Both the position numbers and the translations under genes were made by a program. Positions 1,053-28,177 of a stretch of DNA of 28,177 bases are shown one piece after another (position 1 is the first letter of the stretch; every line of letters begins with the position of its first letter). Source of the stretch: an uncultured Lachnospiraceae bacterium (GTDB lineage: Bacteria > Bacillota > Clostridia > Lachnospirales > Lachnospiraceae). The stretch is taken from NCBI GenBank assembly GCA_902766845.1, contig CACXFD010000028.1:1-28177 (forward strand), written 5' to 3'. The notes under the pieces are model-generated. The model was not told the DNA's origin. It was given only the letters and a program-made list of their open reading frames with translations, and searched no databases.

Positions 1053-1071
1053 GCGGCAGCTTTCCCCTCTG

Positions 1072-3012: not shown

Positions 3013-3016
3013 CCGG

Positions 3017-4191: not shown

Positions 4192-4244
4192 GAAACCGTT
4201 CGCCGGACCGATCCGGCGCCTTTCTGTCATTCTGGCCGCGTCCG

Positions 4245-5093: not shown

Positions 5094-5114
5094 ACGATGC
5101 TCCCGTTCTGTAGA

Positions 5115-6128
5115 TTATTCGTTCTTCTCCCACCACGCCGGTGTGCCGGTGAAGGTCAGGACCAGCAGGCGCGGGAGGCGGCGGTAGTGCCGGCCGAGCC
5201 GGTATCCGATGTATTTCCAGCCGCTCTGCCAGATGAAGCGCACGGCCTGGGCCGGATGCACCGACCGCAGCAGCTGGCCGGTGACGCGGCGCACATAGGC
5301 GATCCCTTCCCCTTCCGAGGGGACGCCCTCGAAGACCTCGGGGTGCATCGCCTGCGAGACGCCCAGGTCAAAGCTCCGTTTGAACTGCTGCTTCGCGGTA
5401 TAGCGGTGCGAATGATAGACGCAGGCCTGCGCCGCGTAGGCCACGGCGTATCCGGCCTTCTGTGCGCGCGCCGCAAAGACCATGTCCTCGTTGAAGACCA
5501 TCGGCTCCGGGAAACCGCCGAGGGCCTCCCAGACGCTGCGCCGGTAAGCCGCACAGACGTTGGAGCAGAAATAGGTCCGGATCCCGAGCTCCGGCAGGTC
5601 CGCCTCGGTCTGCAGCCGGCCTTCCTTCGGATAATTGAATGCGCGGCTCAGCTGCTCGGCGATGTCCGCGCGCTTCTTCGGGAGCTGGCGCGCGTAAGCC
5701 GCGGCGATCAGCGGCGTGCCGCCTGCGCGGACCTCGTCCGCCTGCCCGGCATCCGCCTCCGGGGCCGCGCCGTCCGGCCGGCCGTTTTCCGGATACAGCG
5801 CTTCCAGCAGCCGGGCGAACGTATCCGACCCGGACGGCAGCGCGTCCTGCGTCATGCAGATCACGGTCTCGCTGTTTCCGAGGCGCACGCCCGCATTGCG
5901 GGTCCCGCCGTGATCGAAGTCCGCGGGCTCCAGGAACTGCAGGCTCAGCGGGATGCCCTTTTCCGCCAGGATCCCGCGGACCTCCTCTTCCTGATCGAAC
6001 GAGTCGCCGGTGATCATCAGGATCACGCGCGCGACCTCCACGCCCCGCTGGCGGCAGACGCGGCGGATCAGGATCGGGAAGGCGCCGTCCGGCGCGCAGA
6101 CAGGGATCACCAGGTCCGCGCGCCTCAT
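5115..6128 (-). CDS. GT2 family glycosyltransferase, rhamnosyltransferase (RfbN-like) type
   Basis: 'DFDHGGTRN', 'MTQDA', 'AYARQLP', 'FCSNVCAAYRR', 'FNEDM', 'VYHSH'. Start overlaps the glf stop (ATGA). Confidence 0.8.
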   Translation of the reverse strand: MRRADLVIPVCAPDGAFPILIRRVCRQRGVEVARVILMITGDSFDQEEEVRGILAEKGIPLSLQFLEPADFDHGGTRNAGVRLGNSETVICMTQDALPSGSDTFARLLEALYPENGRPDGAAPEADAGQADEVRAGGTPLIAAAYARQLPKKRADIAEQLSRAFNYPKEGRLQTEADLPELGIRTYFCSNVCAAYRRSVWEALGGFPEPMVFNEDMVFAARAQKAGYAVAYAAQACVYHSHRYTAKQQFKRSFDLGVSQAMHPEVFEGVPSEGEGIAYVRRVTGQLLRSVHPAQAVRFIWQSGWKYIGYRLGRHYRRLPRLLVLTFTGTPAWWEKNE

Positions 6129-7231
6129 GCGAAGTGCTCCTCATAGGCGTCCAGCGCGCGCCGGACCACCTTGTCCATATCGTAATAGCTGTATTCGCCG
6201 AGACGTCCGCCGAAGAGCACGCGCGGCTCCTCGAGCGCGAGCGCCCGGTAGCGCTGGTACAGCGCGCTGTTCGCGTCGTCGTTGACCGGATAGTACGGCT
6301 CCATGCCCTCGGCGTATTCCGCGGGATATTCGCGCGTGATCACGGTCTTCTCCTGCTGCCCGAACGCGAAATGCTTGTGCTCGATGATCCGCGTGTACGG
6401 GATCTCGCGCTCGGTATAGTTCACGACGGCCACGCCCTGGTAGTTGTCCGTATCCAGCACCTCGGTCTCGAAGCGCAGGCTCCGGTATGCCAGCCAGCCG
6501 AGCTTCCCGCCGTAATACTGGTCGATGGGGCCCGTGTAGACGATCCGGTCCGCCAGCGCGTTAAAACCGGCCTTGTCCTCCAGGTAATCGGTATTCGTGC
6601 GGATCTCGCAGCCCTCGTAGAGCTTTTCGATCAGCGCGTTGTAGCCGTCCTCGGGAATGCCCTGGTGACGGTCGTTGAAGTAGTTGTTATCATACGTGAA
6701 GCGCACCGGCAGCCGGCGGATGATGAAGGCCGGCAGGTCTTTGCAGGAGCGGCCCCACTGCTTTTCGGTATAGCCGCGGACCAGCTTCTCGTAGACGTCG
6801 CGGCCCACCAGCGAGATGGCCTGCTCTTCCAGGTTTTGAGGCTCGCCGGTGATCTCCCGCCGCTGCTCCTCGATGACGGCCCGCGCCTCTTCGGGCGTGC
6901 GGATGTTCCAGAGCGTGCGGAACGTGTTCATGTTGAACGGGAGGTTGTACATCTCTCCCTTGTAGTTCGCGACCGGGCTGTTGGTGAACCGGTTGAACGG
7001 CACGAGGCCCGTCACGAAGCGCCAGACCTCTTCATCCGACGTGTGGAAGATGTGCGCGCCGTAGCGGTGCACCTGGATGCCTTCGATCTCCTCGCAGTAG
7101 AGGTTCCCGCCAATCTGCGGACGCTTTTCGATCACGAGGACGCTCTTTCCGTCCCGGCGCGCGCAGTGCGCGATCACGCCGTTATACAGGCCCGCGCCGA
7201 CCAGCAGCAGGTCATACTTCCGTTCGCTCAT
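6125..7231 (-). CDS. glf: UDP-galactopyranose mutase
   Basis: 368 aa. FAD-binding 'VGAGL', 'HRYGAHIFHT', 'YTEKQWG', 'RIIEHKHF', 'EPYYPVND', 'GGRLGEYSYYDMD'. Confidence 0.97.
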   Translation of the reverse strand: MSERKYDLLLVGAGLYNGVIAHCARRDGKSVLVIEKRPQIGGNLYCEEIEGIQVHRYGAHIFHTSDEEVWRFVTGLVPFNRFTNSPVANYKGEMYNLPFNMNTFRTLWNIRTPEEARAVIEEQRREITGEPQNLEEQAISLVGRDVYEKLVRGYTEKQWGRSCKDLPAFIIRRLPVRFTYDNNYFNDRHQGIPEDGYNALIEKLYEGCEIRTNTDYLEDKAGFNALADRIVYTGPIDQYYGGKLGWLAYRSLRFETEVLDTDNYQGVAVVNYTEREIPYTRIIEHKHFAFGQQEKTVITREYPAEYAEGMEPYYPVNDDANSALYQRYRALALEEPRVLFGGRLGEYSYYDMDKVVRRALDAYEEHFA

Positions 7232-8594
7232 ATGAATCTCCTTTCTTCCGCTCGCGGCTCACGTACAGCCACAGCAGGAACGTAATTCCGTAATAGAACC
7301 AGGTCGTCGGATTGGAAAACCAGGTCGTGAAAAAGCTCAGGATCAGGTACATCGCGGTCTGCGCGAACAGGAGCCGGACCGCCGGATCCGCACCGTGCCG
7401 GACCCGCAGCGTCTGCAGCAGGGCGCAGGCCGCTCCGAGCGCAGCCGCAAAAGCCGCCACGCCGATGACGCCGAAATCGTAATAGGCGTCATAGATCAGC
7501 GTCAGGGTGGTCAGTTCCCACTTGGTGGTATAGAGAGGGAGCGCGGCCCATTCCGGATGCGAGAACTTCAGCCCCGTGACCGCGATGACCGGAAACAGCT
7601 GGCGCAGTCCGTGCGCATGGGCCGGCAGGTCCCGGACCAGCACATGGAAGTTCTCGTAATTGTTTGCGATATACATATACGGCTGCGTCACGTAGATCGG
7701 CGTAGCCGCATCCTTCATCTCAAAGATCCCGTTCAGGTACGTTACGTCGTGGTGGCGCGCAAAGGTCAGGGCCACGTAGATCGCTGCCAGGACTACGGCG
7801 CCGGCGGCCAGCCGGCCGGCCCGCACGCGCCGTCCCGCGAGCAGGAGGCACAGAAGCGCAAGGCCCGCGGAAAAGACCAGCTGGAAGCGCGAAACACACA
7901 GGATCGGCAGGGCAAAGGCCGCGGCCATGACCGCGGTCTGTTCCAGCGCGGTCCGGCGCGTCAGGGCCTTGCGGCGGGCCGTTTCCGCCAGGTACTGGAC
8001 CGCCAGCGGCGGGACCAGCACGCAGCTGACCGTGAAATAATGGATCCCGGTCAGATGAAAATAGGAATAGGCATGCGGTTCGGGCGAAAACAGCGGGATG
8101 AACCGCAGGGTGACCGCCTCCGTCACAAACGCGGTCCAGGCCGCCAGGAGCAGGACCAGCTCCGCGATCCGGAGGCGGCGAAGTTTGGCGTCATCGGATG
8201 AGACGGCCGGGCGGTCCGATTCCGTCTTCCCGCCATTTCTCTCCGCGCGTCCGCGCAGCCGGCGTTCCGACAGCGCACAGACGGCCGCGTAGACAGCCGC
8301 AAAGCACAGCCAGGCCAGATACAGCGAGAGCCAGGTCACGGCGTCCCACGGCTCCGAGAGCCGGGACAGCTTCAGACAGGCCACGGCCTGCCCGCCCAGC
8401 CAGAACAGGCTGTAGAGGCCGGCCGGGTCCAGCAGGTCCCACTCGCCGCGGCCGCGATGCATGAAGCCCGCGGCGCCGGCCACGGCCGCGGCGGCCATCA
8501 AAAGGGCCGCGGCCCCGGTCTGCCCGTGCACAGAAAAAGCAGCAGCGCTGCCGTAACAGACCGATACGAGGGCGCAGACTGCCGCTTTTTTCAT
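7212..8594 (-). CDS. Wzy-like oligosaccharide-repeat polymerase (polytopic membrane protein)
   Basis: 460 aa with about 11-12 hydrophobic segments, a large loop ('YMYIANNYENF...TNLTT'-like 'WELTTLTLIYDAYYDFG') and 'FFTTWFSNPTTW'. Sits in a glycan locus and overlaps the glf start by 20 bp. Confidence 0.65.
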   Translation of the reverse strand: MKKAAVCALVSVCYGSAAAFSVHGQTGAAALLMAAAAVAGAAGFMHRGRGEWDLLDPAGLYSLFWLGGQAVACLKLSRLSEPWDAVTWLSLYLAWLCFAAVYAAVCALSERRLRGRAERNGGKTESDRPAVSSDDAKLRRLRIAELVLLLAAWTAFVTEAVTLRFIPLFSPEPHAYSYFHLTGIHYFTVSCVLVPPLAVQYLAETARRKALTRRTALEQTAVMAAAFALPILCVSRFQLVFSAGLALLCLLLAGRRVRAGRLAAGAVVLAAIYVALTFARHHDVTYLNGIFEMKDAATPIYVTQPYMYIANNYENFHVLVRDLPAHAHGLRQLFPVIAVTGLKFSHPEWAALPLYTTKWELTTLTLIYDAYYDFGVIGVAAFAAALGAACALLQTLRVRHGADPAVRLLFAQTAMYLILSFFTTWFSNPTTWFYYGITFLLWLYVSRERKKGDSYERTEV

Positions 8595-11180: not shown

Positions 11181-12530
11181 TCAGGTCTTGTCCGCGGTCT
11201 CCTCGCGGGAGGCCTCGTGGGCGCTGGTGCCCAGCTCTTTGGAGCCGGAGACCGATTCCACGAACATCTCCTCGAGCGCGGCCTCGATCCGCTCCTCCAG
11301 TCCCTGCGAAAGGATCTCCTCCTCTTCCGGCGCCAGATCCACCGGGGCTTCCTCGGAGGATACGGCCGGCTGATCCGGGCGAGACGTCTGATCCAGGCGC
11401 GCTGTCTGATCCAGGCGCGCTGTCTGATCCAGGCGGGATGTCTGGTCCAGGCGCGACGTCTGGTCCTTCACGGCGTCCCGGGCCTTCTGCAGGTCCATGG
11501 TGCGGCCTTCGAAGACATCCGCCTCGAACGCCTTGGCTTCCGGCACCGGCGCGGCCGCGCGCGCGGGCTCTTCCCGGTCTTCCTCCGGCCGGCTCTTCTT
11601 GCGGCCGGCGATCTGCGTGACCGTCACGTCGGTCTGGGCGACCGCGTACTTGGGCACGGCCTTGACGTAGTAATAATACGTATCGTCCTCGAACTGCGCG
11701 TATTCGGTGCGCGTGTAATCCAGCAGGAAGAAGAAGAATTCAAGGATCAGCGCCAGCACGATCGAGATCAGCGTCCCCGCGATCACCCAGCCCACCGGGA
11801 GCGAGGTGATATCCAGCGCAAAGATCCCGCCGAGGATCCCGGCGACCGACAGCACGCCGCCGGCCAGGATCGCGATCAGCCAGGCATACTGGACGCTGAG
11901 CCTGCGCACGGCCCAGACCACGATCACGACCGCGCAGAACACCGCGATCAGGAGCCACATGGCCTTGGCGTCCTTCAGGTACAGGATCAGCTGGGTATAG
12001 CGCTGCAGCACCGGCAGCGAGGACGGATCCCGCAGCGAGGAGGCGTTCGTCTGCACGAAGCGGATGATGTAGCTGATCATCACGCCCAGGCCTACCGGGA
12101 TGGCGCCGAACGGCCCCATCATCAGGCCCACGCAGATCGGGATCACGTACGGGATATGGAACATGTACAGGAGCGGGAGCAGCACCACGATGATGCTGTT
12201 TCCGGGCTGGAACACGTAGTAAGCGCAGAACATCACGAGGAAGATCACCGCCACGGTCAGGAACACTTCCGTGGACAGCGCCCACAGATGCGCGAGCAGG
12301 ACGATCATCGCGAAGAACGATACGCTGCCCCAGGAGAGCAGGCCGCAGATCACGGCCAGCAGCGCCTCCACGCCCGGGTGCCGGAGCACGGACATGTATC
12401 CGAGCGAGCGGCCCAGCATGAAGAAAGCGAGGAACGCGGTCAGCGCCCGCAGGGCGGGATCGATATAGCGGCTGTATTTTCCGTAGAACGCGCGCAGCCA
12501 GTCGCGGAAGAGCAGGACGCGAACGATCAT
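11181..12530 (-). CDS. Hypothetical polytopic membrane protein with an acidic, repeat-containing C-terminal tail
   Basis: 449 aa. About 300 aa of alternating TM segments, then 'EYAQFEDDTYYYYVKAVPK' and a low-complexity tail with DQT(S/A)RL repeats. Start overlaps the upstream stop (ATGA). Confidence 0.8.
   Translation of the reverse strand: MIVRVLLFRDWLRAFYGKYSRYIDPALRALTAFLAFFMLGRSLGYMSVLRHPGVEALLAVICGLLSWGSVSFFAMIVLLAHLWALSTEVFLTVAVIFLVMFCAYYVFQPGNSIIVVLLPLLYMFHIPYVIPICVGLMMGPFGAIPVGLGVMISYIIRFVQTNASSLRDPSSLPVLQRYTQLILYLKDAKAMWLLIAVFCAVVIVVWAVRRLSVQYAWLIAILAGGVLSVAGILGGIFALDITSLPVGWVIAGTLISIVLALILEFFFFLLDYTRTEYAQFEDDTYYYYVKAVPKYAVAQTDVTVTQIAGRKKSRPEEDREEPARAAAPVPEAKAFEADVFEGRTMDLQKARDAVKDQTSRLDQTSRLDQTARLDQTARLDQTSRPDQPAVSSEEAPVDLAPEEEEILSQGLEERIEAALEEMFVESVSGSKELGTSAHEASREETADKT
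11370..11466. repeat. Coding 18-bp tandem repeat, about 5.4 copies, encoding DQT(S/A)RL
   Basis: Plus-strand units start at 11370, 11388, 11406, 11424, 11442 and 11460 (partial); consensus ctgatccaggcgcgctgt. Confidence 0.92.
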
Positions 12531-15543: not shown

Positions 15544-16224
15544 TCAGCCGTCTTCCCGCCCGAGAAGATAGTCCCGCAGGATCTCCCCGATCTTCGGGCT
15601 GTGCACGATATACGATCCGTGATCCTCGCCGGGCAGGATCCGCAGCTGCGCGCCGGGAATGCCTGCGGCGATGCGGCGCGTCTCGGCCTCGCGGATCAGG
15701 TCTCCGTCCCCGGCCAGCACCAGCGTGCGCGCCGTGATCTTCGCGAGGTCCGCGTCCGTGATCCGCGGCTCCTGAAGCATCAGCCTCGTCAGCGGATCCT
15801 TCTTCCAAAGGTACGACAGCCGGAAACGCAGCCGCAGGCCCGCCTTGACGCCGCGCGGAGTCAGATTGGCCCCGCTGACGATCAGGTCCGTGATCCGGTC
15901 CGTCTGCCCCGCGGCCAGCAGGCCCACGATCCCTCCGTCACTGAAGCCGTAGAAGACCGCGTTCCGCAGATCCAGCTGTTCCAGCAGGCATACGATATCG
16001 CGCGCCATATCCGTGTAGTGCAGGCCGCCGGCCAGCTCCGCAAGCGGCGTGCTCCGGCCGTGTCCGCGGCTGTCCGCGCCGTAGCAGGTGAAGCTTTCCC
16101 GCAGAACGGCGACGGCCTCGTCAAAGATCGTATGATCCTCGCCGTTTCCGTGCACCAGGATCAGGGGCCGGCCGGAGCCGGTCACTTCATAAAACAGGTC
16201 GATCCCGTTGACATGCGCGGTCAT
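15544..16224 (-). CDS. Alpha/beta-fold hydrolase
   Basis: 226 aa from MTAHVNG (GGGAGG RBS; ATGA overlap with the upstream gene). 'HGNGED', nucleophile elbow 'GFSDG', 'GDGD' and 'EDHGSY' fit a Ser-Asp-His triad. Confidence 0.9.
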   Translation of the reverse strand: MTAHVNGIDLFYEVTGSGRPLILVHGNGEDHTIFDEAVAVLRESFTCYGADSRGHGRSTPLAELAGGLHYTDMARDIVCLLEQLDLRNAVFYGFSDGGIVGLLAAGQTDRITDLIVSGANLTPRGVKAGLRLRFRLSYLWKKDPLTRLMLQEPRITDADLAKITARTLVLAGDGDLIREAETRRIAAGIPGAQLRILPGEDHGSYIVHSPKIGEILRDYLLGREDG

Positions 16225-16673
16225 GCTTTTGCCTCCCGGAGGTCCTTTTCCGGCGCGCCCGCGCCGGGGCCGCCGGCCCCGGCCGCTTCCCGTCGGTTCA
16301 GTTCTTTTTCGATCCGGTTCAGCGTCCCGAAGAAGCGGTGGGTCGCGATCATCGGCCCGAAAAGCGGCAGGCCCAGCGTGTTCCAGCCGAACATGTGCCA
16401 AAACGACGTGTGCGGCCCTTCGATCCCGAGCTCGGCGGCCTTTGCCTTCAGCTCCTCGGAGATCCGCGCCATCCAGACGATCGTGTACAGCGTCAGATCC
16501 GGCAGCCCCAGCAGATACGCCTGCCAGTACGGCTGCGTCTTATGGCCCAGGACCTCATCGAGCTCCTTCTGCAGGCCGCAGAGCGGCATGTAGAACAGAA
16601 AGAAGGTCCCGGCCGTGAAAAAATCGATCCAGCCGAACCAGAAGCCCGGCCGGTCGGTGTGTTTGAACTTCAT
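16221..16673 (-). CDS. DUF4234-like small membrane protein
   Basis: Two similar hydrophobic units ('DFFTAGTFFLFY', 'LTLYTIVWMARISEEL') plus 'GPMIATHRFFGTLN'. Family assignment is by recall only. Confidence 0.6.
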   Translation of the reverse strand: MKFKHTDRPGFWFGWIDFFTAGTFFLFYMPLCGLQKELDEVLGHKTQPYWQAYLLGLPDLTLYTIVWMARISEELKAKAAELGIEGPHTSFWHMFGWNTLGLPLFGPMIATHRFFGTLNRIEKELNRREAAGAGGPGAGAPEKDLREAKA

Positions 16674-16770
16674 GGTGCTTCCCTCACTGCGCGGACGCCC
16701 GCAAAAGCGTCCGCTGTGATGACCGCCTCCGGGGCGGCCTTTTGCGCCTTCCGCCGTCTGCGCCTGCCGC

Positions 16771-17739
16771 TCAGCAGACCTCGACCAGCTCGATGCGGAA
16801 ATTCAGCGCCTTGCCCGCCATCCGGTGGTTGGCGTCAAAGGTCACCGTCTCCGCGTCTTTGGCCGCGACCGTGACCGGGAACGGCCGGCCCGAAGGATCC
16901 TGCAGATAGACGTTCTGTCCCGCCTCCAGGTCTTCCGCGCCGGGCATCTGTTCGATCCGGACCGTAAAGACGGCGCGCGGATCCCGTTCGCCGTACGCCT
17001 CGTCGGGCATCAGGCGGACGTCCACGACCTGCCCCACCTCCATGTCCGCGACCGCGGCGTCAAAGCCCCGGATCATCTGGCCGATGCCGCAGGTGAACTC
17101 GAGCGGTTCCCCGCGGTCATAAGAAGAATCGAACTGAGTCCCGTCATCCAGGGTCCCGCGGTAATGTACGAGGCAGGTCTTTCCGACGTTGCGGCCCCGG
17201 ATGGCCTGCACCTGCTCGTCGGAGCCGTCTCCCGCGGCGCTCCCGCCGCAGCAGCCGCCGTCTTCGCCGCAGCCGTGCCCGTCTTCATGCTCTCCGCAGC
17301 CGGCCTCGTGATGGCCGCAGCCCTCCTCGCCGTGATGGCCGCACTCGTTGCCTTCACCGTGATGGCCGCAGGCGTCCTCGTGATGACCGCACTCATGACC
17401 TTCTCCGTGATGGTGATCACAGTTCGATCCCGTGTTCACGAGCTCTCCGCGCAGATAGGCCTCCACGGCCTCGTCCGCGCTTCCGGACGCGCCGGCGCAC
17501 AGCTCGATGCCGCAGCTCTCGAGCGCGGCCTGCGCCCCGCCGCCGATGCCGCCGCAGATCAGCACGTCAACGCCCTGCCCGCTCAGCAGGCCGGCCAGCG
17601 CGCCGTGCCCGGTCCCGCCGGACCCGATGACCTCGGACCGGACGACCTTTCCGTCTTCGACTTCATAGACCTTGAACGTTTCGGTGCGCCCGAAATGCTG
17701 GAAGATCTCACCCTGCTCATACGTTACAGCGATTTTCAT
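16771..17739 (-). CDS. Fusion: NifB/NifX-family domain + His/Cys-rich linker + SlyD/SlpA-type FKBP peptidyl-prolyl isomerase
   Basis: N-terminus 'KIAVTYEQGEIFQHFGRTETF...VDVLICGGIGGGA'. C-terminus 'VHYRGTLDDGTQFDSS...GQMIRGFD...AYGERD...DANHRMAGKALNFRIELV' with an insert-in-flap segment. GGGAGG spacing favours the second ATG (17739) over 17742. Confidence 0.9.
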   Translation of the reverse strand: MKIAVTYEQGEIFQHFGRTETFKVYEVEDGKVVRSEVIGSGGTGHGALAGLLSGQGVDVLICGGIGGGAQAALESCGIELCAGASGSADEAVEAYLRGELVNTGSNCDHHHGEGHECGHHEDACGHHGEGNECGHHGEEGCGHHEAGCGEHEDGHGCGEDGGCCGGSAAGDGSDEQVQAIRGRNVGKTCLVHYRGTLDDGTQFDSSYDRGEPLEFTCGIGQMIRGFDAAVADMEVGQVVDVRLMPDEAYGERDPRAVFTVRIEQMPGAEDLEAGQNVYLQDPSGRPFPVTVAAKDAETVTFDANHRMAGKALNFRIELVEVC

Positions 17740-17820
17740 CATAACCTCCCGCGGTCCGCCTGCGGCGTCCGCTTACCTTTTTCGCTTACAGTTCCCGCTG
17801 ACAACACTTCTCCGGACCGC

Positions 17821-19044
17821 TTAAAACGCCCACTTGCCGCGGCGCAGCACCGGCACGGTCCGGCCGTCGCGCGTGACCGCGTCGATGTCCAGCCCTTCAT
17901 AGCCGATCATGAAATCCACGTGAATCATCGAGTCGTTGACGCCGAGCTGACGGCACTCCTCGAGCGTCTTGTGCTCGAAATCTTTGATCGTATCGGCAAA
18001 GCCCATGCCGAGCGCCAGATGGCAGGCCGCGTTCTCATCGAACAGCGTCTCATAGAAGAGCAGACCGGATTCGGAGATCGGCGAATCGACCGGGACCAGC
18101 GCGCACTCGCCCAGGTAGGCCGCGCCCTCGTCCATCGCGATCATCTCCTCGAGCAGGGCCTGGTTCTTCTCCGCTTTGACCTCGACGGCCCGGCCGTTCT
18201 CGAAGCGGACCATGAAGTCCTCGATCAGCTGGCCCTGATAGGACAGCGGCCTGGTGGCGTAGACGACGCCTTCCGCCTTGCCGCGCATCGGCGAGATGAA
18301 GCATTCCTCGGTCGGAATGTTCGGGTTGAAGAAGACGCCGCTCAGCGTGCGGTCTCCGCCGCCCTTGAACTCCGCCTCGGGGATCATGCCCACGGTCAGG
18401 TCCGTGCCGTTATCCCCATGATAGCGCAGCTCGGCGATGCCGAGGCCGTTCAGGTACGCGCAGCGGTCCGCCAGGTCCTTGTTGTGAGCCTCCCAGGCCG
18501 CGACCGGATCCTCGTCCACGCGGGACGTAAACAGGATGGCCTCCCACAGCTTTTCGACGGCCTGCCCCTTCGAAAGCTCCGGGAACAGCTTTTTGGCCCA
18601 GGCCACGCCCGGCACGGCCGCGATGCACCACTGGTACCGGTTCTCCATCTGATCGCGGTACGGCTTGAGGATCGGGTAGCGCTTCCGGCCGGCCTTCGCC
18701 ACCTTCTTCTGATCGATGCCCTTCAGCCCGTCGGGATCTTCCGACACCAGATGGATCCGGCACGGGAGCGCGTCGACGTAATGCTGCAGGCGGGCCTTCT
18801 CCCACTCTTCGACCCTGGCCAGCGACGTGACCGACTGATGCCGGACATGGAGCTTTTCGAGCGGCTGATAATGAAAATCTACCCGGACCTTGCCGGCTCC
18901 GGCCTTGTAGCATTCGTCGACCAGCAGCTCGACGAACTTCGGCTGGTCCAGGCCGCAGTTGATCACGACTTCCTGGCCCTTCTGAATGCTGACGCCGGCC
19001 CGTGCGATCAGGCGGGCGTATTTGCGCAATACGGTCTGTTTCAT
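17821..19044 (-). CDS. Aminopeptidase, peptidase family M29 (AmpS/AmpT/PepS-like)
   Basis: 407 aa. 'PNIPTEECF', 'YLGECALV', 'TLFDENAACHLALG', 'NDSMIHVDFMIG'. AAGGAGG RBS. Confidence 0.94.
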   Translation of the reverse strand: MKQTVLRKYARLIARAGVSIQKGQEVVINCGLDQPKFVELLVDECYKAGAGKVRVDFHYQPLEKLHVRHQSVTSLARVEEWEKARLQHYVDALPCRIHLVSEDPDGLKGIDQKKVAKAGRKRYPILKPYRDQMENRYQWCIAAVPGVAWAKKLFPELSKGQAVEKLWEAILFTSRVDEDPVAAWEAHNKDLADRCAYLNGLGIAELRYHGDNGTDLTVGMIPEAEFKGGGDRTLSGVFFNPNIPTEECFISPMRGKAEGVVYATRPLSYQGQLIEDFMVRFENGRAVEVKAEKNQALLEEMIAMDEGAAYLGECALVPVDSPISESGLLFYETLFDENAACHLALGMGFADTIKDFEHKTLEECRQLGVNDSMIHVDFMIGYEGLDIDAVTRDGRTVPVLRRGKWAF

Positions 19045-19107
19045 CTGAGGTCCTCCTTCACGGTCCTTTCAAAACGCTCCGCGCGACCCTCGGTCCGCGT
19101 TTTCCGG

Positions 19108-19210
19108 GATCTGTGTCTTTTTGATGATCTGTGATCTTTCGATGATCTGCGTCTTTTCGATGATCTGCGGCTTCTCGATGATCTGCGATCATGAGAAGAT
19201 CTGCGGCTTT
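19108..19210. repeat. Intergenic degenerate 18-bp tandem repeat, about 5.7 copies
   Basis: Units beginning gatctg at 19108, 19126, 19144, 19162, 19180 and 19198; consensus about gatctgcgNYtttYcgat. Confidence 0.88.
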
Positions 19211-19216
19211 ACAGCG

Positions 19217-19244
19217 CGAGCCTGCCGATCTCTCGGCAGGCTCG
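19217..19244. other. 12-bp perfect inverted repeat downstream of lysS (GAGA tetraloop on the minus strand); no U-tract
   Basis: cgagcctgccga-tctc-tcggcaggctcg. Confidence 0.7.
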
Positions 19245-19284
19245 TTCTCAGGCTGCCGGCTGCGCGCCCGCCGCCTCCCTATTC

Positions 19285-21264
19285 TCAGTACAGCTTCGCA
19301 CCGGCCGGGATGCCCGGATCCACCATCAGCAGGTGGAGCTTCTCTTCTCCGCCCTCATCGTGCACCGCGGACAGCAGCATGCCGCAGGAGTCGATGCCCA
19401 TCATCTTGCGCGGCGGCAGGTTCGTGATCGCGATGCAGGTCTTCCCGATCAGCTGCTCCGGCTCATAATAAGCATGGATCCCGCTCAGGATGGTCCGGTC
19501 CGTGCCGGTCCCGTCGTCGAGCGTGAACTGCAGCAGCTTCTTGCTCTTCGGAACGGCCACGCAGTCCTTGACCTTCACGGCGCGGAAATCGGACTTGGAG
19601 AAGGTCTCGAAATCGACCTGGTCCTCGAACAGCGGCTCGATCACGAGGCTTGCCGGATCCGGCTTTTTCACGTCAAAGAGCGGCATGGACGGATCGTTCG
19701 CGCTCACGGCCGGGGCCGCTTCCGCCGCAGGTCCTTCCGCCGCGGTCCCGCCGGCCGCGTCCTCTTTGCTCTCGCTTCCGGTCTTCAGGCTCTTCATGGT
19801 GGGGAACGCGATCACGTCGCGGATCGCTTCGCTGTCCGTCAGCAGCATGACCAGACGGTCGATGCCGTAGCCGATGCCACCGGTCGGGGGCATGCCGATC
19901 TCGAGGGCATGCAGGAAGTCTTCATCCGTGTGATTGGCTTCTTCATCGCCGGCCGCGAAGGCCTCTTCCTGCGCCGCGAAGCGCGCGCGCTGGTCGATCG
20001 GATCGTTGAGCTCGGAATAGGCGTTGCACATCTCGCGCCCATAGATATACATCTCGAAGCGGTCCACCAGGGTCTCGTCGTCCTCTTTCTTCTTGGTGAG
20101 CGGCGAGATCTCGATCGGATGGTCGCAGACGAACGTGGGCTGGATCATCTTCTCTTCGCAGTATTCGTCGAAGAACAGGTTGATGATGTCCCCGCGCTTA
20201 TGGCGCGCTTCGTAGGCGATGTGATGCTGATCCGCCACGGCCTTCGCTTCCTCATCCGTTTTGATCTGCGAGAAGTCCACGCCCGCGTATTCTTTGACCG
20301 CGTCGATCATCGTGATGCGGCGGAACGGCTTCTCCATATCGATGACGGTGCCGTTGTAGCTGATCACGGCGCTGCCGCAGACCTTGCGCGCCAGATGGCG
20401 GAACAGGTCTTCGGTCAGGTCCATCATGCCGTTGTAATCCGTGTAGGCCTGGTAGAGCTCCATCAGCGTGAATTCGGGGTTGTGGCGCGCGTCCAGGCCC
20501 TCGTTGCGGAACACGCGGCCGATCTCATACACGCGTTCGAGGCCGCCCACGATCAGGCGCTTCAGGTACAGTTCCAGCGAGATGCGAAGCTTGACGTCCT
20601 CGTTCAGCGAATTGTAATGCGTCTCGAACGGACGGGCCGCCGCGCCGCCGGCGTTCGCGACCAGCATGGGCGTCTCCACCTCGATGAAGTCCCGCGCGTC
20701 CAGGAAGTTCCGGATCTCGCGGATGATCTGCGAGCGCTTCAGGAACGTATCCTTGACCTCCGGGTTCATGATCAGGTCCAGATAGCGCTGACGGTAGCGC
20801 ATGTCCGTATCCGTCAGGCCATGGAACTTTTCGGGCAGGGGCGACAGGTTCTTCGCAAGCAGCACCACCTCGGTGGCGTGGATCGAGATCTCGCCCATCT
20901 GCGTGGTGAAGACCGTGCCCTTGACGCCCACGATATCGCCGATGTCCATGCGCTTGAAGGCCGCGTACGGTTCCTCGCCGAGGAAATCCCGGGCCACGTA
21001 GATCTGGATCTGGCCCTTGCGGTCCTGCACGTTGGCGAACGACGCTTTGCCCATCACGCGCTTGAACATCATGCGGCCGGCCACCGCGACCTCTTTGCCT
21101 TCGAACGAGGCGTAACTGTCCTTGATATCCTGCGAATGCGCGGTCACGTCATAGCGGCGCAGACGGAACGGGTCCTTCCCCTCCGCCTGCAGCTGCGCGA
21201 GCTTCTCGCGGCGCACCTTCTCCAGCTGGTTGACGTCCTGCGGTCTGTTTCCCTGGTCTGCCAT
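19285..21264 (-). CDS. lysS: Class II lysyl-tRNA synthetase with a fused C-terminal tRNA-binding (MetRS-C/Trbp111-like OB) domain
   Basis: 'RYRQRYLDL', 'FIEVETPML', 'LELYLKRLIVGG', 'FRNEG', 'HNPEFT', 'MPPTGGIGYGIDRL'. Extra C-terminal 'DFRAVKVKDC...KLLQFTLDDG...NLPPRKMMGIDSCGMLL'. Confidence 0.97.
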   Translation of the reverse strand: MADQGNRPQDVNQLEKVRREKLAQLQAEGKDPFRLRRYDVTAHSQDIKDSYASFEGKEVAVAGRMMFKRVMGKASFANVQDRKGQIQIYVARDFLGEEPYAAFKRMDIGDIVGVKGTVFTTQMGEISIHATEVVLLAKNLSPLPEKFHGLTDTDMRYRQRYLDLIMNPEVKDTFLKRSQIIREIRNFLDARDFIEVETPMLVANAGGAAARPFETHYNSLNEDVKLRISLELYLKRLIVGGLERVYEIGRVFRNEGLDARHNPEFTLMELYQAYTDYNGMMDLTEDLFRHLARKVCGSAVISYNGTVIDMEKPFRRITMIDAVKEYAGVDFSQIKTDEEAKAVADQHHIAYEARHKRGDIINLFFDEYCEEKMIQPTFVCDHPIEISPLTKKKEDDETLVDRFEMYIYGREMCNAYSELNDPIDQRARFAAQEEAFAAGDEEANHTDEDFLHALEIGMPPTGGIGYGIDRLVMLLTDSEAIRDVIAFPTMKSLKTGSESKEDAAGGTAAEGPAAEAAPAVSANDPSMPLFDVKKPDPASLVIEPLFEDQVDFETFSKSDFRAVKVKDCVAVPKSKKLLQFTLDDGTGTDRTILSGIHAYYEPEQLIGKTCIAITNLPPRKMMGIDSCGMLLSAVHDEGGEEKLHLLMVDPGIPAGAKLY

Positions 21265-23099: not shown

Positions 23100-23432
23100 T
23101 CATTCATCCTCCTCCGAGAGCGGCTCCCCGAGGAAGAACACCTTATAATACGTCTGCAGCGCCTCGAAGAGCTCCCGGCGCTCCTTTTGGATCTGCTTGA
23201 TCTTGAGCTCGCTCCCGACCTCGTCGAAAAGGTAGTCGGCCTCATCGGCCCGGACCGACAGCCGGACCTCGCCGTCCTCATCGTCCAGTTCCACGGTCAG
23301 GATCCCGCCGACGTCCTCCACGTAGGACACGCAGAGGATCTTCAGCTCATCCTGCACGCCCTGCGGGAGCGAGGCAAACGCGGGGTCGAAATAATACTTC
23401 TGTTCGTAGGAATTCGCGCCGCACAGGATCAT
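23100..23432 (-). CDS. Conserved acidic hypothetical protein (DUF6145-like)
   Basis: 110 aa from '[15 protein letters not shown]'. Start overlaps the upstream stop (ATGA). Family name is from recall. Confidence 0.72.
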
Positions 23433-23737
23433 CCGGCGCCTCCCACCGTGAGCAGGCTCACGACCGCGATGCCGAGGAGCACGAGCCCCGCCAGCAGGAT
23501 GCCGAAGGCCGCCGCGGGACGGCGCCCGCTCCCGACCACGCGCAGGCGCAGCACGGCCGTCAGGATGCAGGCCGCGGCCGCGGCAAAAAAGACGATCGGG
23601 AAGCAGAACCCGAACGCCGCGGGATTCCAGATCGCGAGGATGCTCCCGGCGATCATGATCAGGCACAGCGCCGTATAGGCGATATCCGTGGCCCGGCGGG
23701 CCGCCCGGCGCTGCGCGCCGGTCTTGTATCCGTCCAT
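23429..23737 (-). CDS. Small three-TM membrane protein (possibly DUF6637-like)
   Basis: 102 aa with three hydrophobic segments. AAGGAG RBS. Family name tentative. Confidence 0.7.
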   Translation of the reverse strand: MDGYKTGAQRRAARRATDIAYTALCLIMIAGSILAIWNPAAFGFCFPIVFFAAAAACILTAVLRLRVVGSGRRPAAAFGILLAGLVLLGIAVVSLLTVGGAG

Positions 23738-23761
23738 GAGATGACTCCTTCTGTGCAGTTA

Positions 23762-23861
23762 CGGCCGGCCCGTCGGCCGGTCTTCTCAGCCGGCTTCCGA
23801 TACGGCAGGCCTTCTATACGCCGGACCGGTCTGTTTCCGGCCGGCCCGTCGGCCGGTCTTC
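23762..23861. repeat. Two identical 24-bp GC-rich direct repeats, each containing a 6-bp hairpin
   Basis: cggccggcccgtcggccggtcttc at 23762-23785 and 23838-23861. Confidence 0.88.
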
Positions 23862-23864
23862 CGT

Positions 23865-24875
23865 TCAGCCGCGGCGGTACGTCTCCGGCCGGGCCAGCGT
23901 GGCCAGCATCACGGCCTTGATCGTATGCATGCGGTTCTCGGCCTCGTCGAAGACCAGGGACTGTTCGGATTCGAAGACCTCGTCGGTGACCTCCATCTCG
24001 GTGATGCCGAAGCGTTCGCCCATCTCGCGGCCGATCTTCGTCTCCAGGTCATGGAACGACGGCAGGCAGTGCAGGAAGATCGCGTGCGGGCCGGCCGCGG
24101 CCATCACGTCTTTGGTGACGCGGTACGGCGTCAGGTCCGCGATCCGCTCCTGCCAGACCTCGTCGGGCTCGCCCATCGAGACCCAGACGTCGGTGCAGAT
24201 CACATCCGATTCGGCCGCGGCGGACACGTCCTCGGTCAGCGTGATGCTGCCCCCGCTCTCCCTGGCCCAGGCGCGGCAGGTCTCGACCAGCTCCGGATCC
24301 GGGAAGTATTTCTTCGGCGCGCAGGCCGTAAAGTGCAGGCCCAGCTTCGCGCAGACCACCATATAGGAGTTCCCCATATTATAGCGCGCGTCGCCGAAGT
24401 AGGTCAGGCGCAGGCCGGCCAGCCGGCCGAAGTGCTCGCGCACGGTCAGCATGTCCGCAAGCATCTGCGTCGGGTGATATTCATTGGTCAGGCCGTTCCA
24501 GACCGGCACGCCCGCGTGCGCGGCCAGCGTCTCCACGATCTCCTGCCCGTAGCCGCGGTACTCGATGCCGTCATACATGCGGCCCAGTACGCGCGCAGTA
24601 TCCTTGATGCTCTCTTTTTTGCCGATCTGCGATCCGGACGGATCCAGATAGGTGGTCCCCATGCCCAGGTCATGGGCCGCCACTTCGAACGAGCAGCGGG
24701 TCCGCGTGCTGGTCTTCTCAAAGATCAGGGCCACGTTGCGCCCCCGCAGATGATCGTGCGGGACGCCCTGTTTCTTCTCTGCCTTGAGCTGCGCGGCCAG
24801 ATCCAGAAAGTCCGTGATCTCCTCCGCGGTAAAGTCCCGCAGTGTCAGAAAATGCCGTCCGTACAGTGCTGCCAT
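23865..24875 (-). CDS. argF: Ornithine carbamoyltransferase
   Basis: 336 aa. 'FEKTSTRTR', '[11 protein letters not shown]', 'TDVWVSMG', 'HCLP', '[13 protein letters not shown]'. Confidence 0.95.
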
Positions 24876-25040: not shown

Positions 25041-25985
25041 TCACTCTTTCTTCACGGTCTCCGACAGGGCGGCCAGCGTGCCGGCCAGACCCTGGATGTC
25101 CGACGGGATGATCAGCTTCGTGGACTGGCCGTCGGCCACCTTTTCGAGGGCCTCGAGGCTCTTGAGCCGGATCACCGCGTCGTCCGCGCCGGCTTCCTTG
25201 ACCGCACGGATACCGTCGGCCGTGGCCTGCTGCACGCGCAGGATGGCTTCGGCCTGGCCTTCCGCCTCGCGGATCATGGCCTCTTTCTTGGCCTCGGCCC
25301 GCAGGATCGCGGCCTGCTTTTCCGCCTCGGCCTGCAGGATGGCCTGTTCCTTCTTACCTTCTGCCACGAGGACCGTGGACTTCTTTTCACCTTCGGCCTG
25401 CAGGATCTTTTCACGGCGCTCACGTTCCGCCTTCATCTGGCGTTCCATGGAGTCCTGGATCTCAGCCGGCGGGATGATGTTCTTGAGCTCGACACGGTTC
25501 ACCTTGATGCCCCAGGGATCCGTCGCGATGTCCAGCTCCGTGCGCATCTTGGTGTTGATCAGCTCACGGCTGGTCAGCGTTTCATCCAGCTCCAGGTCGC
25601 CGATGATGTTACGCAGCGTGGTGGCCGTCAGATTTTCGATGGCCATCAGCGGGTTCTCGACGCCGTAGGTGAACAGCTTCGGGTCCGTGATCTGGAAGAA
25701 GACCACGGTATCGATCTGCATGGTCACGTTATCTTCGGTGATCACCGGCTGCGGCTTGAAGTCGATGACCTGTTCCTTCAGGTTCACGCGCTTGGCGATC
25801 CGGTCGATGAACGGGACCTTGACATGCAGGCCCGTTCCCCAGGTCCCCGCGTACGCACCCAGCCGCTCCAGCACCATGGCCTGCGCCTGCGGCACCACGC
25901 GGATATTCGAGATGATGAGCATCAGCACGAGGATCAGCAGCACAGCGAGCACGATCCATCCGCCCAGACTTACAGCAGCGATCAT
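25041..25985 (-). CDS. SPFH/band-7 (stomatin/QmcA-like) membrane protein
   Basis: N-terminal TM, 'GLHVKVPFIDRI', 'VITEDNVTMQIDTVVF', 'WGIKVNRVEL', coiled-coil 'AERERR...AEGEK'. AAAGGAGG RBS before ATG 25985. Confidence 0.94.
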   Translation of the reverse strand: MIAAVSLGGWIVLAVLLILVLMLIISNIRVVPQAQAMVLERLGAYAGTWGTGLHVKVPFIDRIAKRVNLKEQVIDFKPQPVITEDNVTMQIDTVVFFQITDPKLFTYGVENPLMAIENLTATTLRNIIGDLELDETLTSRELINTKMRTELDIATDPWGIKVNRVELKNIIPPAEIQDSMERQMKAERERREKILQAEGEKKSTVLVAEGKKEQAILQAEAEKQAAILRAEAKKEAMIREAEGQAEAILRVQQATADGIRAVKEAGADDAVIRLKSLEALEKVADGQSTKLIIPSDIQGLAGTLAALSETVKKE

Positions 25986-26073
25986 AGTTTCCTCCTTTGC
26001 CCCGTCGGGCATGTTTTCATGACCGGATCCTCCCGGTCAGTGTCCTGTTTCGCGTCCCGTTTTCGGGTCCGCC

Positions 26074-26493
26074 TCACTCCACGATCAGCTTCACGCCGCG
26101 GATCTCACGCACCGTGGCCTGCTGCCCGGCCGGGATCACGCGTCCGTCCGCCGAGCGGGCGGTCCACTCCTGTCCGTTCGCATCGGCCGCCCCGGTCCCG
26201 CGCACGTTGTCGATCTCCTCGGTGATCCGGACCGTGGTCCCGATCAGGCTCTCCGCGTTGGTGCGGATGACCTTGTGGTCCATCAGCTTTTTGACCGCGG
26301 GCCGTGTGGCCAGCAACAGCACCACCGAAACGGCGATGGCCGCGAAGATCTGCACGGCAGGCGAGACTCCGAGCAGGCTCAGGATCAGTCCCGCCAGCGC
26401 GCCGCCCGCGAACCAGATCGTCGTCAGGCCGGCCGTGGCGGCTTCGATGATCACGAGCACGATACCGATCACCAGCCAGATCCATGGACTCAT
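26074..26493 (-). CDS. Short NfeD-family (YbbJ-like) SPFH partner
   Basis: 139 aa from MSPWIW (AAAGGAGG RBS). Hydrophobic N-terminal half and OB-like C-terminus 'NAESLIG...GQEWTARS...VREIRGVKLIV'. Confidence 0.9.
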   Translation of the reverse strand: MSPWIWLVIGIVLVIIEAATAGLTTIWFAGGALAGLILSLLGVSPAVQIFAAIAVSVVLLLATRPAVKKLMDHKVIRTNAESLIGTTVRITEEIDNVRGTGAADANGQEWTARSADGRVIPAGQQATVREIRGVKLIVE

Positions 26494-26523
26494 CGGAAGC
26501 ACCTCCTTTGCTTTGTTGTCTCT

Positions 26524-26552
26524 ATTGTAAACGTTTGTCCGGAAATTCGCAA
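26524..26552 (-). promoter_or_regulatory. Putative sigma-A promoter of nfeD-SPFH
   Basis: TTGCGA (26552-26547), 17-bp spacer, TACAAT (26529-26524). Confidence 0.7.
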
Positions 26553-26630
26553 CCGCCGCCGCGGCGGAAACCCAGTGGTTATTTCCGCGAAAACGGAGAA
26601 TGGGGGCCGTTCGGACCGCTTCCCGGGCGC

Positions 26631-26660
26631 AAAAAAACAGCGCGGCCGCGTGCCGCGCTG
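26631..26660 (-). terminator. Intrinsic terminator of the nitroreductase gene
   Basis: 9-bp stem cagcgcggc / gccgcgctg directly after the stop, followed by 7 U on the minus strand. Confidence 0.88.
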
Positions 26661-27413
26661 TCACTCGAGAAAGAACGTCTCGACGTATTGATTCTTCTTC
26701 AGTTCTTTTTCCTGGATCCCGCTCTGGCGGAGCGATCCGGTCATCCACAGCTCCTCCGCGCCGAGCATCAGGTGCGCTTCGGCGATGCCGGCGTGGAACT
26801 GATGCGAGAGCCGGGCCCGTTTGTCCTCCACACGCGGGACAAAGATATGGATGCGGTCCCGGTAGACCACGAAGCGCCACGGCTGGCGGTTCAGGGCCGA
26901 CGGCGCGAGCCGGACGGCGGAGAGCAGGGTCTTCTGGGTCTCCCCGATGGGCTCCTTGAGGAAGAACAACTGGCTGTCGGGCTTGCGGTGCGCCCGCGCC
27001 GGATCCCGGTACAGGTCCTCCTGCGCATAGCCGAACGCGATCACGATGACCTTCTTCCTGCCTTCCGGCACCTTGCCGCGCACCTGCGTGCCGCCCTGGT
27101 AGCAGGTCGCGATCCCGCGGCTGGTCATGTACAGGACCAGATACTCCGCTGCGATGCCGGCCTTCCGCCAGGCCGCCTCGTCTTCCGGGGCGTAGATCAC
27201 GAGGTAGTGCGGCGCGCGGACCCGGAACAGCCCGCCGAGCCGTTTGGCTGCCTGCTCCGCGGACACGAGCTCCGTCTCCCAGACCAGGTCGGGGAGCATC
27301 TCTTCGACCTCCTCCTTATAGCGCCGGAGATGGGCCAGCATCTCCTCGTCCAGCGGCTGCTTCGCAAAAGCGCGCACGGACTGCCTTTTCTGTATGGCCT
27401 CGAACAGTGTCAT
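26661..27413 (-). CDS. Nitroreductase-family protein (two nitroreductase-like half domains)
   Basis: 'IQKRQSVRAF', 'LYMTSRGIATCY', and a second unit 'AVRLAPSALNRQPWRF...AGIAEAHL'. Confidence 0.85.
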   Translation of the reverse strand: MTLFEAIQKRQSVRAFAKQPLDEEMLAHLRRYKEEVEEMLPDLVWETELVSAEQAAKRLGGLFRVRAPHYLVIYAPEDEAAWRKAGIAAEYLVLYMTSRGIATCYQGGTQVRGKVPEGRKKVIVIAFGYAQEDLYRDPARAHRKPDSQLFFLKEPIGETQKTLLSAVRLAPSALNRQPWRFVVYRDRIHIFVPRVEDKRARLSHQFHAGIAEAHLMLGAEELWMTGSLRQSGIQEKELKKNQYVETFFLE

Positions 27414-27634: not shown

Positions 27635-27749
27635 TTATCTTGCATTCTTTTGTCACGGGTTCTCCGTGGCTGTCCGATCGCATGCGGCCCGCACGGGTCC
27701 AGTTTCAGGCGCGCCCGCGCCTGCACTATCTGTGTAAGGAGGTCCTGCC

Positions 27750-28177
27750 ATGAACAGACCGCTGATCGAGATGGTCGACATCTCCAAGAAGTACGATGAC
27801 ACCCTGGTGCTGGATGAGTTCAACCTGACCATCCGCGAAAACGAGTTTCTCACGCTCCTGGGACCCAGCGGATGCGGCAAAACGACGACGCTGCGTATCC
27901 TCGGCGGGTTTGAGACACCGGACACCGGCCGTGTGCTGTTCAATGGCACGGACATCACGAATCTTCCCCCGAATAAACGGGAACTCAATACGGTCTTCCA
28001 GAAGTACGCGCTGTTCCCGCACATGGACATCGCGGAAAACATCGCCTTCGGCCTGAAGATCAAGGGCAAGAGCAAAGCGTACATCGATGACAAGATCAAG
28101 TACGCCTTGAAGCTCGTCAACCTCGACGGCTTCGAGCACCGCTCGGTCACCTCGCTCTCGGGCGGCCAGCAGCAGCG
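27750..28177 (+). CDS. potA: Spermidine/putrescine ABC transporter ATP-binding subunit (5' part; runs off the window)
   Basis: Not in the ORF track; translated by hand: [17 protein letters not shown]...[23 protein letters not shown]...[13 protein letters not shown]...LSGGQQQ. AAGGAGG RBS at 27736-27742. Confidence 0.88.

Follow-up and report, generated by a model that had tools for sequence, protein, structure and literature searches.

SlyD is a textbook folding catalyst that also carries metal. Proteins with a Di-Nase domain outside the nif systems are abundant in anaerobes, and to our knowledge biochemistry is available for only a few of them, namely IssA, ORP and the C-terminal domain of MrpORP. 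MrpORP from Desulfovibrio has a dimeric Di-Nase domain that binds an Fe-S cluster, with two motifs proposed as its ligands, a C/H-rich HFGH and a terminal CDH (PMC6345978). In IssA from Pyrococcus furiosus, a Di-Nase domain and a disordered C-terminal tail store Fe-S (PMC5524996). ORP binds a Mo-Cu-S cluster, according to an entry in the reference list of PMC6345978. Besides delivering Ni, SlyD interacts with and supports Fe-S biogenesis (PMC10653786). Here we analyze a gene that joins the two families. It is located on a contig of 28,177 nucleotides (CACXFD010000028.1, assembly GCA_902766845.1) from an uncultured rumen Lachnospiraceae bacterium, referred to below as the window. It encodes a Di-Nase domain, a His/Cys-rich linker and an FKBP with an insert-in-flap (IF) segment in a single chain.

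We propose that the fusion protein is a SlyD-like general folding helper, with a metal or cluster arm provided by a fused non-nif Di-Nase domain and its native Cys/His tail. The sequence comparisons described below tip slightly in favor of this reading. An original prediction, made from the DNA letters alone, had described a three-part folding and metal-insertion chaperone. Its anatomy and its candidacy as a metal-handling helper stand. The origin that it gave to the linker, the NifX label of the N-terminal domain and an M29 peptidase as the client do not.

Domain organization of the fusion protein

Both folded domains were confirmed by profile hidden Markov models. Residue numbers follow the 323-residue form of the protein (P0001); the shorter form of 322 residues is P0002. 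In the C-terminal half, PF00254 (FKBP_C) matches residues 186-255 with an E value of 1.4e-20, covering profile positions 7-76 of 94. The FKBP flap is interrupted, since the match reaches only to profile position 76, and the last strand follows from residue 309 on. This half can be aligned, IF segment included, with the chimera 5i7p, an FKBP12-IF(SlyD), and with the Thermus and E. coli SlyD proteins (phmmer, ~2e-17). The equivalents of the FKBP12 active-site residues Y26, F36, D37, R42, I56, W59 (a Phe here), Y82 and F99 are invariant among 50 diverse homologues, and include Y194, F204, D205, R210, I224, F227 and Y250.

The AlphaFold2 model, based on a 50-sequence alignment, contains two confident domains with predicted local distance difference test (pLDDT) block values of 90-98. 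Residues 111-177 are disordered in it (pLDDT <50). Foldseek searches with the C-terminal half found SlyD, SlpA and archaeal FKBP26, all of which are FKBPs with an IF domain, at template modeling (TM) scores by target of 0.74-0.82; the SlyD structures among these matches are from T. thermophilus. The N-terminal half matched PH0822 with a TM score by target of 0.85. The alignment with 5i7p and SlyD, the Foldseek matches and the interrupted Pfam match all agree with the predicted SlyD-type FKBP.

The fusion protein shares the FKBP active-site positions, the IF insert and a disordered His/Cys-rich segment with SlyD from E. coli, Thermus thermophilus and Helicobacter pylori. It also differs from them. 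The SlyD tail is C-terminal, whereas the metal-rich segment in the fusion is N-terminal to the FKBP and comes from the Di-Nase partner. In addition, the fusion has an extra folded domain. No His/Cys tail is found at its C-terminus, and the chain stops right after the last FKBP strand (...ELVEVC). The NCBIfam SlyD equivalog PRK10737 is not reached (61.7 bits, cut-off 174).

In the N-terminal half, PF02579 (Nitro_FeMo-Co, IPR003731) matches residues 11-97 with an E value of 7.7e-21 and 74.7 bits, against a Pfam cut-off of 26.3. The original prediction had assigned this domain to the NifB/NifX family, which the equivalog scores contradict. The nifX model TIGR02663 scored 17.3 bits against a cut-off of 112. 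The nifB model TIGR01290 scored 17.8-22.1 bits against 343.65, and the protein contains no radical-SAM domain. The best NCBIfam match of the domain is MrpORP (NF041136), at 77-81 bits over profile positions 264-365 of 365. Full-length MrpORP is not reached, the match being confined to these positions and scoring 77 bits against a cut-off of 450. The closest solved structures are those of TM1816 (1t3v/1o13, E 1e-12), TM1290, PH0822, MTH1175 and, weakly, ORP; besides 1t3v and 1o13, the PDB entries matched were 1rdu, 2yx6, 1eo1 and 2wfb. Because the nifX and nifB scores are far under their cut-offs, and the C-terminal domain of MrpORP, TM1816, MTH1175 and ORP match best, the sequence assigns the domain to the non-nif MTH1175/TM1816/MrpORP-C type of IPR003731, not to NifX or NifB proper.

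H16 (in HFG), H46 (in GHG) and C63 (in ICGG) of the Di-Nase domain are invariant across 50 diverse fusion homologues. The protein studied here reads QHFGRTE at the first of these sites. H16-F-G is kept, the second His of HFGH is replaced by Arg, and the flanking Cys residues of MrpORP are absent. This second His is Lys or Arg in 133 of 140 proteins of the fused clade, and His in 18 of 20 non-fused relatives. A CDH motif is present as C108-D109-H110, in which C108 and H110 are invariant.

The described relatives differ from the fusion in several ways. Although the C-terminal domain of MrpORP is the best NCBIfam match, the fusion lacks the Mrp/NBP35 P-loop ATPase domain and the orp gene context. 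The Cys residues of the MrpORP motif CxHFGHCE are also missing, and the tail in the fusion is expanded by repeats and continues into the FKBP. TM1816, TM1290, PH0822 and MTH1175 share the fold and the sequence family of the Di-Nase domain (E 1e-12 to 2e-5), and TM1816 has a His run after the domain, at its C-terminal end. However, they are single-domain proteins of ~110-135 residues, uncharacterized in function, with no FKBP. IssA and ORP also contain an IPR003731 domain, but the similarity of ORP (2wfb) to the fusion is weak (E 0.0036). The disordered C-terminal tail of IssA takes part in Fe-S binding. It is cationic and rich in Gly and aromatic residues, contains one Cys and has a high isoelectric point, whereas the linker of the fusion is acidic and rich in His and Cys.

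The linker and its origin

The 61-residue linker contains 14 His, 9 Cys and 19 Gly. It opens with N-C108-D-H110-H111-H, continues with repeats of the (E/G)xxCGHH type and has CCGG at its end. The units are, in order, four CGHH, CGEH, CGED and CCGG. The original prediction had counted the His, the Cys and these units exactly. Fifteen residues are acidic (11 Glu and 4 Asp), and there are no Arg, Lys or aromatic residues. In the DNA, 17244-17413 form an imperfect tandem repeat whose periods are 21, 27 and 48 nt. The spacer that follows leads up to G-R-N-V-G-K, with which the FKBP begins and which is conserved.

In 140 fusion proteins, the linker varies in length (28-67 residues, median 46) and in its number of His (3-17) and Cys (5-12). 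Its opening is always N-C-D/H-H-H and its closing usually CGG(G)CG. C108, H110 and H111 are invariant across the 50 diverse homologues. A constant opening, combined with a Cys-rich character and variable length and His content, is in keeping with a flexible region that binds metal, rather than with a folded domain. Contigs of other bovine-gut runs contain in-frame variants of the linker at 17224-17246 and 17306-17358, with 6 nt deleted net and 51 nt of the repeat skipped, indicating that the repeat number differs between strains.

The original prediction had explained the linker as a metal-binding SlyD tail that moved in front of the peptidyl-prolyl isomerase (PPIase). To locate its origin, non-fused proteins from the same GTDB family were compared, 20 close Di-Nase relatives and 14 more distant paralogues (34 in total). 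Among the close relatives, nine are stand-alone proteins of 130-155 residues and eleven are proteins of ~257 residues with an N-terminal DUF134 domain. All 20 end in a Cys/His-rich tail, for example ...CDHHGEHHGEGHTCGSHGCGSH.... The distant paralogues (33-45% identity) keep HFGHCE, and all 14 have ...C-H-E-H-x-H-x-x-E-C... or longer Cys-rich tails. Six stand-alone FKBP orthologues of 141-162 residues are 61-71% identical to the fused FKBP half. In all six, both ends are free of His/Cys tails, and the 3 kb around them contain no Di-Nase gene. A SlyD and UreE-like gene pair was not seen there either, as no reading frame of ~190 residues follows the FKBP in the lists of reading frames of the six loci; no search aimed at the UreE family was made.

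Since all 34 non-fused Di-Nase relatives sampled are tailed and all six stand-alone FKBPs are tail-less, the linker is the tail of the Di-Nase protein itself. Its opening CDH motif is reported to be conserved at the end of Di-Nase domains of the MrpORP type (PMC6345978), which also places the tail on the Di-Nase side. A transposed SlyD tail was rejected because Cys/His tails are a feature of the Di-Nase family, and the stand-alone FKBP orthologues have none. Sequence comparison indicates that a tail-bearing Di-Nase protein and a tail-less SlyD-type FKBP were joined, and that the tail was kept and expanded as the linker.

In an unrooted tree of Di-Nase domains, one branch (97/88) divides the FKBP-fused from the non-fused proteins, the latter a mixture of DUF134-fused and stand-alone forms. 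With the HFGHCE paralogues as the root, the non-fused proteins form a supported clade (95/96) and the fused proteins an unresolved grade. The tree therefore leaves the number of events and their direction (fusion or fission) undecided.

The DUF134-containing proteins, in which DUF134, Di-Nase and a Cys/His tail are combined in ~257 residues, are the second common architecture in the family. At one locus (1583-2387), DUF134 and the tailed Di-Nase protein are encoded by adjacent genes 2 nt apart. DUF134 is a putative DNA-binding domain with a weak Sigma70_r4 match. Compared to the fusion, these proteins have a Di-Nase domain that is 60-70% identical and a tail of the same chemistry (...GEGHTCG.HGCGSHSCH). 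They differ in their N-terminal, putatively DNA-binding partner, in forming a separate clade and in retaining the second His of HFGH. Such a protein looks like a metal- or cluster-responsive regulator.

Distribution and integrity of the fusion

The family of the host was surveyed with one genome per genus. The full fusion in one frame is present in ~29 of 201 genera, and many others contain the Di-Nase part alone. The IF-type FKBP is mostly fused in this family, with ~29 fused and 6 stand-alone cases among the matches listed. Both Pfam domains are found in all 120 best database matches. Species-representative genomes contain at least 594 related stretches, and the best 80 of these are all full-length fusions, mostly from Lachnospiraceae, so that at least 80 records of named species have the fusion. 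The carriers in this family include Blautia schinkii, Coprococcus comes, Catenibacillus scindens, Butyrivibrio and Pseudobutyrivibrio, together with metagenome-assembled genomes (MAGs) of Roseburia, Dorea and Merdimonas. A small number of records are labeled otherwise, as Anaerovibrio lipolyticus DSM 3074, Selenomonadaceae, Solobacterium, Mogibacterium, Ruminococcaceae, or MAGs of Synergistes and Oscillospiraceae. In the Di-Nase trees their genes nest among Lachnospiraceae sequences, which suggests horizontal transfer or mis-binned or mislabeled MAGs. In the ESM Atlas, 28 clusters with at least 50 members each have the fusion architecture.

The fusion is thus real, widespread in gut Firmicutes and already in databases under generic names. 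Literature searches found no study of it or of Cys/His-tailed clostridial Di-Nase proteins. Both results agree with the earlier expectation that similar fusions might be in databases without functional characterization. The names in databases are too narrow or misleading; 'FKBP-type peptidylprolyl isomerase' leaves out the Di-Nase half. As grounds for its refutation, the original prediction had named homologues that are mostly split genes with no shared context. This applies by half: the loci do not share their gene context, and Di-Nase-only relatives are numerous, but the fused proteins make up a large and conserved lineage.

One uninterrupted open reading frame joins the domains, as predicted, with neither a stop nor a frameshift between them. 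The longest version is on the minus strand at 16771-17742 and encodes 323 residues from an alternative ATG at 17742. Homologues begin with MKIAVTY, in agreement with the second ATG at 17739. This start and the ribosome-binding site GGGAGG located 5 nt before ATG 17739 make the 322-residue product the likely one. A 322-residue protein 100% identical to P0002 is present in a public collection.

The linker is a GC-rich tandem repeat, which is error-prone for assembly, and the host genome is a fragmented MAG of 248 contigs (87% complete). Such features could point to a chimeric assembly, or to a frameshift that masks two genes. However, the same single frame is found in more than 100 homologues from other species, isolates and MAGs alike. 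A contig of another bovine-gut run covers 16600-17557 and bridges the linker with in-frame indels only. These observations exclude an assembly artefact for the frame, and we give an artefactual origin of the gene practically no weight. The gene is covered in part by contigs of one metatranscriptome run; being contigs, they are no evidence for transcription.

Gene neighborhood and metal-related genes

The fusion gene is surrounded in the window by genes for MATE, alpha/beta hydrolase and DUF4234-like proteins on one side and M29 aminopeptidase, LysRS, GreA and Dus on the other. All are on the minus strand, and they are unrelated housekeeping genes. The surroundings of the fusion were compared up to 7 kb away at 20 related loci and up to 4 kb away at 80 named ones. 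The M29 gene is located 78 nt upstream on the same strand and encodes a binuclear metallopeptidase, which the original prediction had put forward as a possible client. It is absent from all 20 loci, including that of a same-genus genome, and from all 80 others, and was rejected as a client.

This result also bears on the idea of a rearranged SlyD, whose tail would have moved to the front and been tethered to a NifX-type carrier, possibly serving the M29 enzyme. The proximity of the M29 gene would suit it, as would the composition of the linker, which resembles SlyD tails in its His, Cys, Gly and CCGG. The absence of M29 from 100 of 100 related loci, the tail's nativeness to the Di-Nase family and its absence from stand-alone FKBP orthologues, and the low nifX and nifB scores all argue against it. 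We consider a rearranged SlyD very improbable.

Several other neighbors were rejected as partners. LysRS, GreA, the DUF4234-like protein, the alpha/beta hydrolase and HSP20 are not conserved beside the fusion at the 20 and 80 loci. A 246-residue Metallophos gene is found near it at 6 of 20 and 6 of 80 loci, His_Phos_1 at 1 of 20 and 5 of 80 plus a few metagenome places, and MATE at ~5 of 80. These are too sporadic for partners, and the recurrence probably represents residual synteny. No hypB gene was found near the fusion loci. Nif genes are absent from the window and from the related loci surveyed, and the window contains no hyp genes, as originally noted. Variable, unrelated neighbors at 100 loci fit a general-purpose protein rather than a maturation factor with a dedicated target.

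Apart from the fusion, no Di-Nase gene and no IF-type FKBP was found in the host genome. This genome also contains two tandem hypB genes (TIGR00073, 225 and 235 bits; contig positions 4229-5534) directly after a His_Phos_1 gene. An orphan hypA on another contig (positions 6230-6682) adjoins genes for a GH2 glycosidase and a sugar ABC (ATP-binding cassette) transporter. Two [FeFe]-hydrogenase matches were found. The host genome gave no match to the [NiFe]-hydrogenase large subunit (PF00374), a NuoD-like subunit (PF00346) or CODH/HCP (PF03063), and PF00374 and PF03063 were likewise not found in a same-genus genome that is 98% complete.

Proposed mechanism and alternatives

As a SlyD-like folding helper, the fusion protein could work as follows. 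Upon fusion, the Di-Nase tail would have turned into a disordered interdomain linker, and the repeats from which it is built would let it expand or contract by slippage. The linker, probably together with H16, H46, C63, C108 and H110-111 of the Di-Nase side, would bind either one of the thiophilic metals Ni, Zn, Co and Fe or a small Fe-S species. An unfolded client would be held by the IF domain while the FKBP site isomerizes its prolyl bonds, and the metal or cluster would be handed over during folding. Clients would be many, rather than one operon-encoded enzyme, and the protein would be a SlyD-like metallochaperone arrived at through a different domain combination. The invariant equivalents of the PPIase active site and the invariant His/Cys positions of the Di-Nase domain in 50 homologues speak for this proposal. 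So does the presence of the fusion as the sole Di-Nase and sole IF-type FKBP of its host.

Several observations weigh against it. AlphaFold2 predicts no fixed packing or docking between the domains (predicted TM score 0.45). The Di-Nase site may differ between the fused clade and the MrpORP and non-fused lineages, as suggested by the motif comparison. C108, H110 and H111 are the sole invariant part of the linker, and its His-poor variants are dominated by Cys. Finally, among the related genomes HypB is over its cut-off in 10 of 29 genomes with the fusion and in 36 of 172 others. As these genomes are related to one another, this loose co-occurrence is at most a weak enrichment, and most fusion carriers have no HypB. 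A strictly Ni- or HypB-linked role is unsupported. Fe-S handling appears as plausible as a Ni role, given the precedents of MrpORP and IssA and the link of SlyD to Fe-S biogenesis (PMC10653786).

The tailed Di-Nase protein is often fused to or encoded beside DUF134, the architecture expected of a ligand-sensing regulator. The fusion may correspondingly be a metal- or cluster-regulated chaperone or sensor, in which the Di-Nase domain and tail switch the PPIase and chaperone activities by metal or Fe-S status, without delivery. In E. coli SlyD, Ni on the tail inhibits PPIase activity, in line with such a switch. However, no DUF134 gene is found at the 100 fusion loci within the 4-7 kb compared, nor was one found in the 87%-complete host genome. 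The DUF134-fused Di-Nase domains belong to a clade separate from the FKBP-fused ones (95/96), and no interdomain contact is predicted. We regard a purely regulatory role as unlikely.

Alternatively, the protein may store, buffer or detoxify metal or Fe-S in the manner of Hpn or IssA, with the linker as a sink that scales with its repeats and the FKBP solubilizing or incidental. Linker length and His/Cys count differ between species and strains, as exemplified by the 51-nt in-frame variant, and in this they resemble His-rich storage proteins. IssA itself is a Di-Nase protein whose disordered tail stores Fe-S (PMC5524996). On the other hand, the FKBP with IF is the most conserved half and its active-site positions are intact, which suggests selection on a folding function. 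The predominance of fused over stand-alone IF-type FKBPs among the matches listed and the opposite character of the IssA tail also argue against storage. This role seems to us quite improbable, less so than a rearranged SlyD and more so than a sensor.

The preferred reading, a general folding helper with a metal or cluster arm, can be extended to the Di-Nase family. Non-nif Di-Nase proteins of the MTH1175/TM1816 type may be donors of metal or small Fe-S species to folding clients. The fusion would then be a 'Rosetta stone', a self-contained chaperone for insertion during folding that combines carrier, flexible metal arm, prolyl isomerase and holdase in a single chain, and it would do in many gut and rumen Firmicutes what SlyD and separate carriers do elsewhere. 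We put this forward as a tentative idea that is rather doubtful at present.

Features of the window

Features of the fusion gene are listed in Table 1. An Rfam scan of the whole window gave no matches. A sigma-70 promoter scan of 16100-19400 found none, and no terminator-like site was called in the gaps flanking the fusion gene. The 97-nt gap downstream of it contains a GC-rich inverted repeat at 16691-16714 with 8-bp stems and an 8-nt loop. This repeat has no T-run and was not called by the scan, and it may be a terminator.

Table 1. Positions of the fusion gene and its parts in the window
Feature	Position	Strand	Basis
Fusion coding sequence, 322 residues plus stop	16771..17739	minus	both Pfam domains in one frame, conserved in homologues
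Ribosome-binding site GGGAGG	17745..17750	minus	5 nt 5' of ATG 17739; direct sequence reading
Di-Nase/Nitro_FeMo-Co domain, residues 2-106	17425..17739	minus	PF02579, NF041136, PDB matches, pLDDT 90-96
His/Cys/Gly/Glu-rich disordered linker, residues 107-167	17242..17424	minus	composition; pLDDT <50; tandem repeats
Short, non-conserved spacer, residues 168-185	17188..17241	minus	alignment; pLDDT <50 up to residue 177
FKBP PPIase core, residues 186-255	16978..17187	minus	PF00254; 5i7p alignment; invariant columns
IF segment	16819..16977	minus	Pfam break; alignment through IF; four extra strands in model
Last FKBP beta-strand, residues 309-323, AGKxLNFxIELVEV	16774..16818	minus	sequence; alignment

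Additional features were found elsewhere in the window. The LysRS (659 residues, 19285-21264, minus) has an extra C-terminal tRNA_bind domain (PF01588, EMAP/Trbp111-like). The reading frame of the alpha/beta hydrolase at 15544-16401, with a TTG start, overlaps the DUF4234-like frame at 16221-16673 by ~180 nt, both being on the minus strand. An internal Met right ahead of its Pfam match (MTAHVNG...) is the probable start of the hydrolase. A cell-envelope polysaccharide cluster occupies 12-7231 on the minus strand, with Acyl_transf_3, DUF2142, DUF2304, three GT2 and a UDP-galactopyranose mutase. An SPFH/Band-7 gene and, after it, an NfeD-like gene form the usual pair of stomatin and NfeD at 25041-26880 on the minus strand. 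Just downstream of the pair, at 23100-24875, are an ornithine/aspartate carbamoyltransferase gene and a DUF6145 gene. No Pfam match was found for the minus-strand reading frames at 7212-8594 (460 residues), 11181-12530 (449 residues) and 27653-28177 (at least 174 residues).

Implications

Our analysis corrects a tempting misreading of this protein, in that the metal-rich linker is the tail of the Di-Nase protein and not a transposed SlyD tail. Cultured gut bacteria that carry the fusion include Blautia schinkii, Coprococcus comes, Catenibacillus scindens and Anaerovibrio lipolyticus. A fusion this conserved and widespread provides a testable hypothesis for the SlyD-type and the Di-Nase families alike, namely that a Di-Nase module and its Cys/His arm would supply metal or clusters to clients held by an FKBP-IF chaperone.

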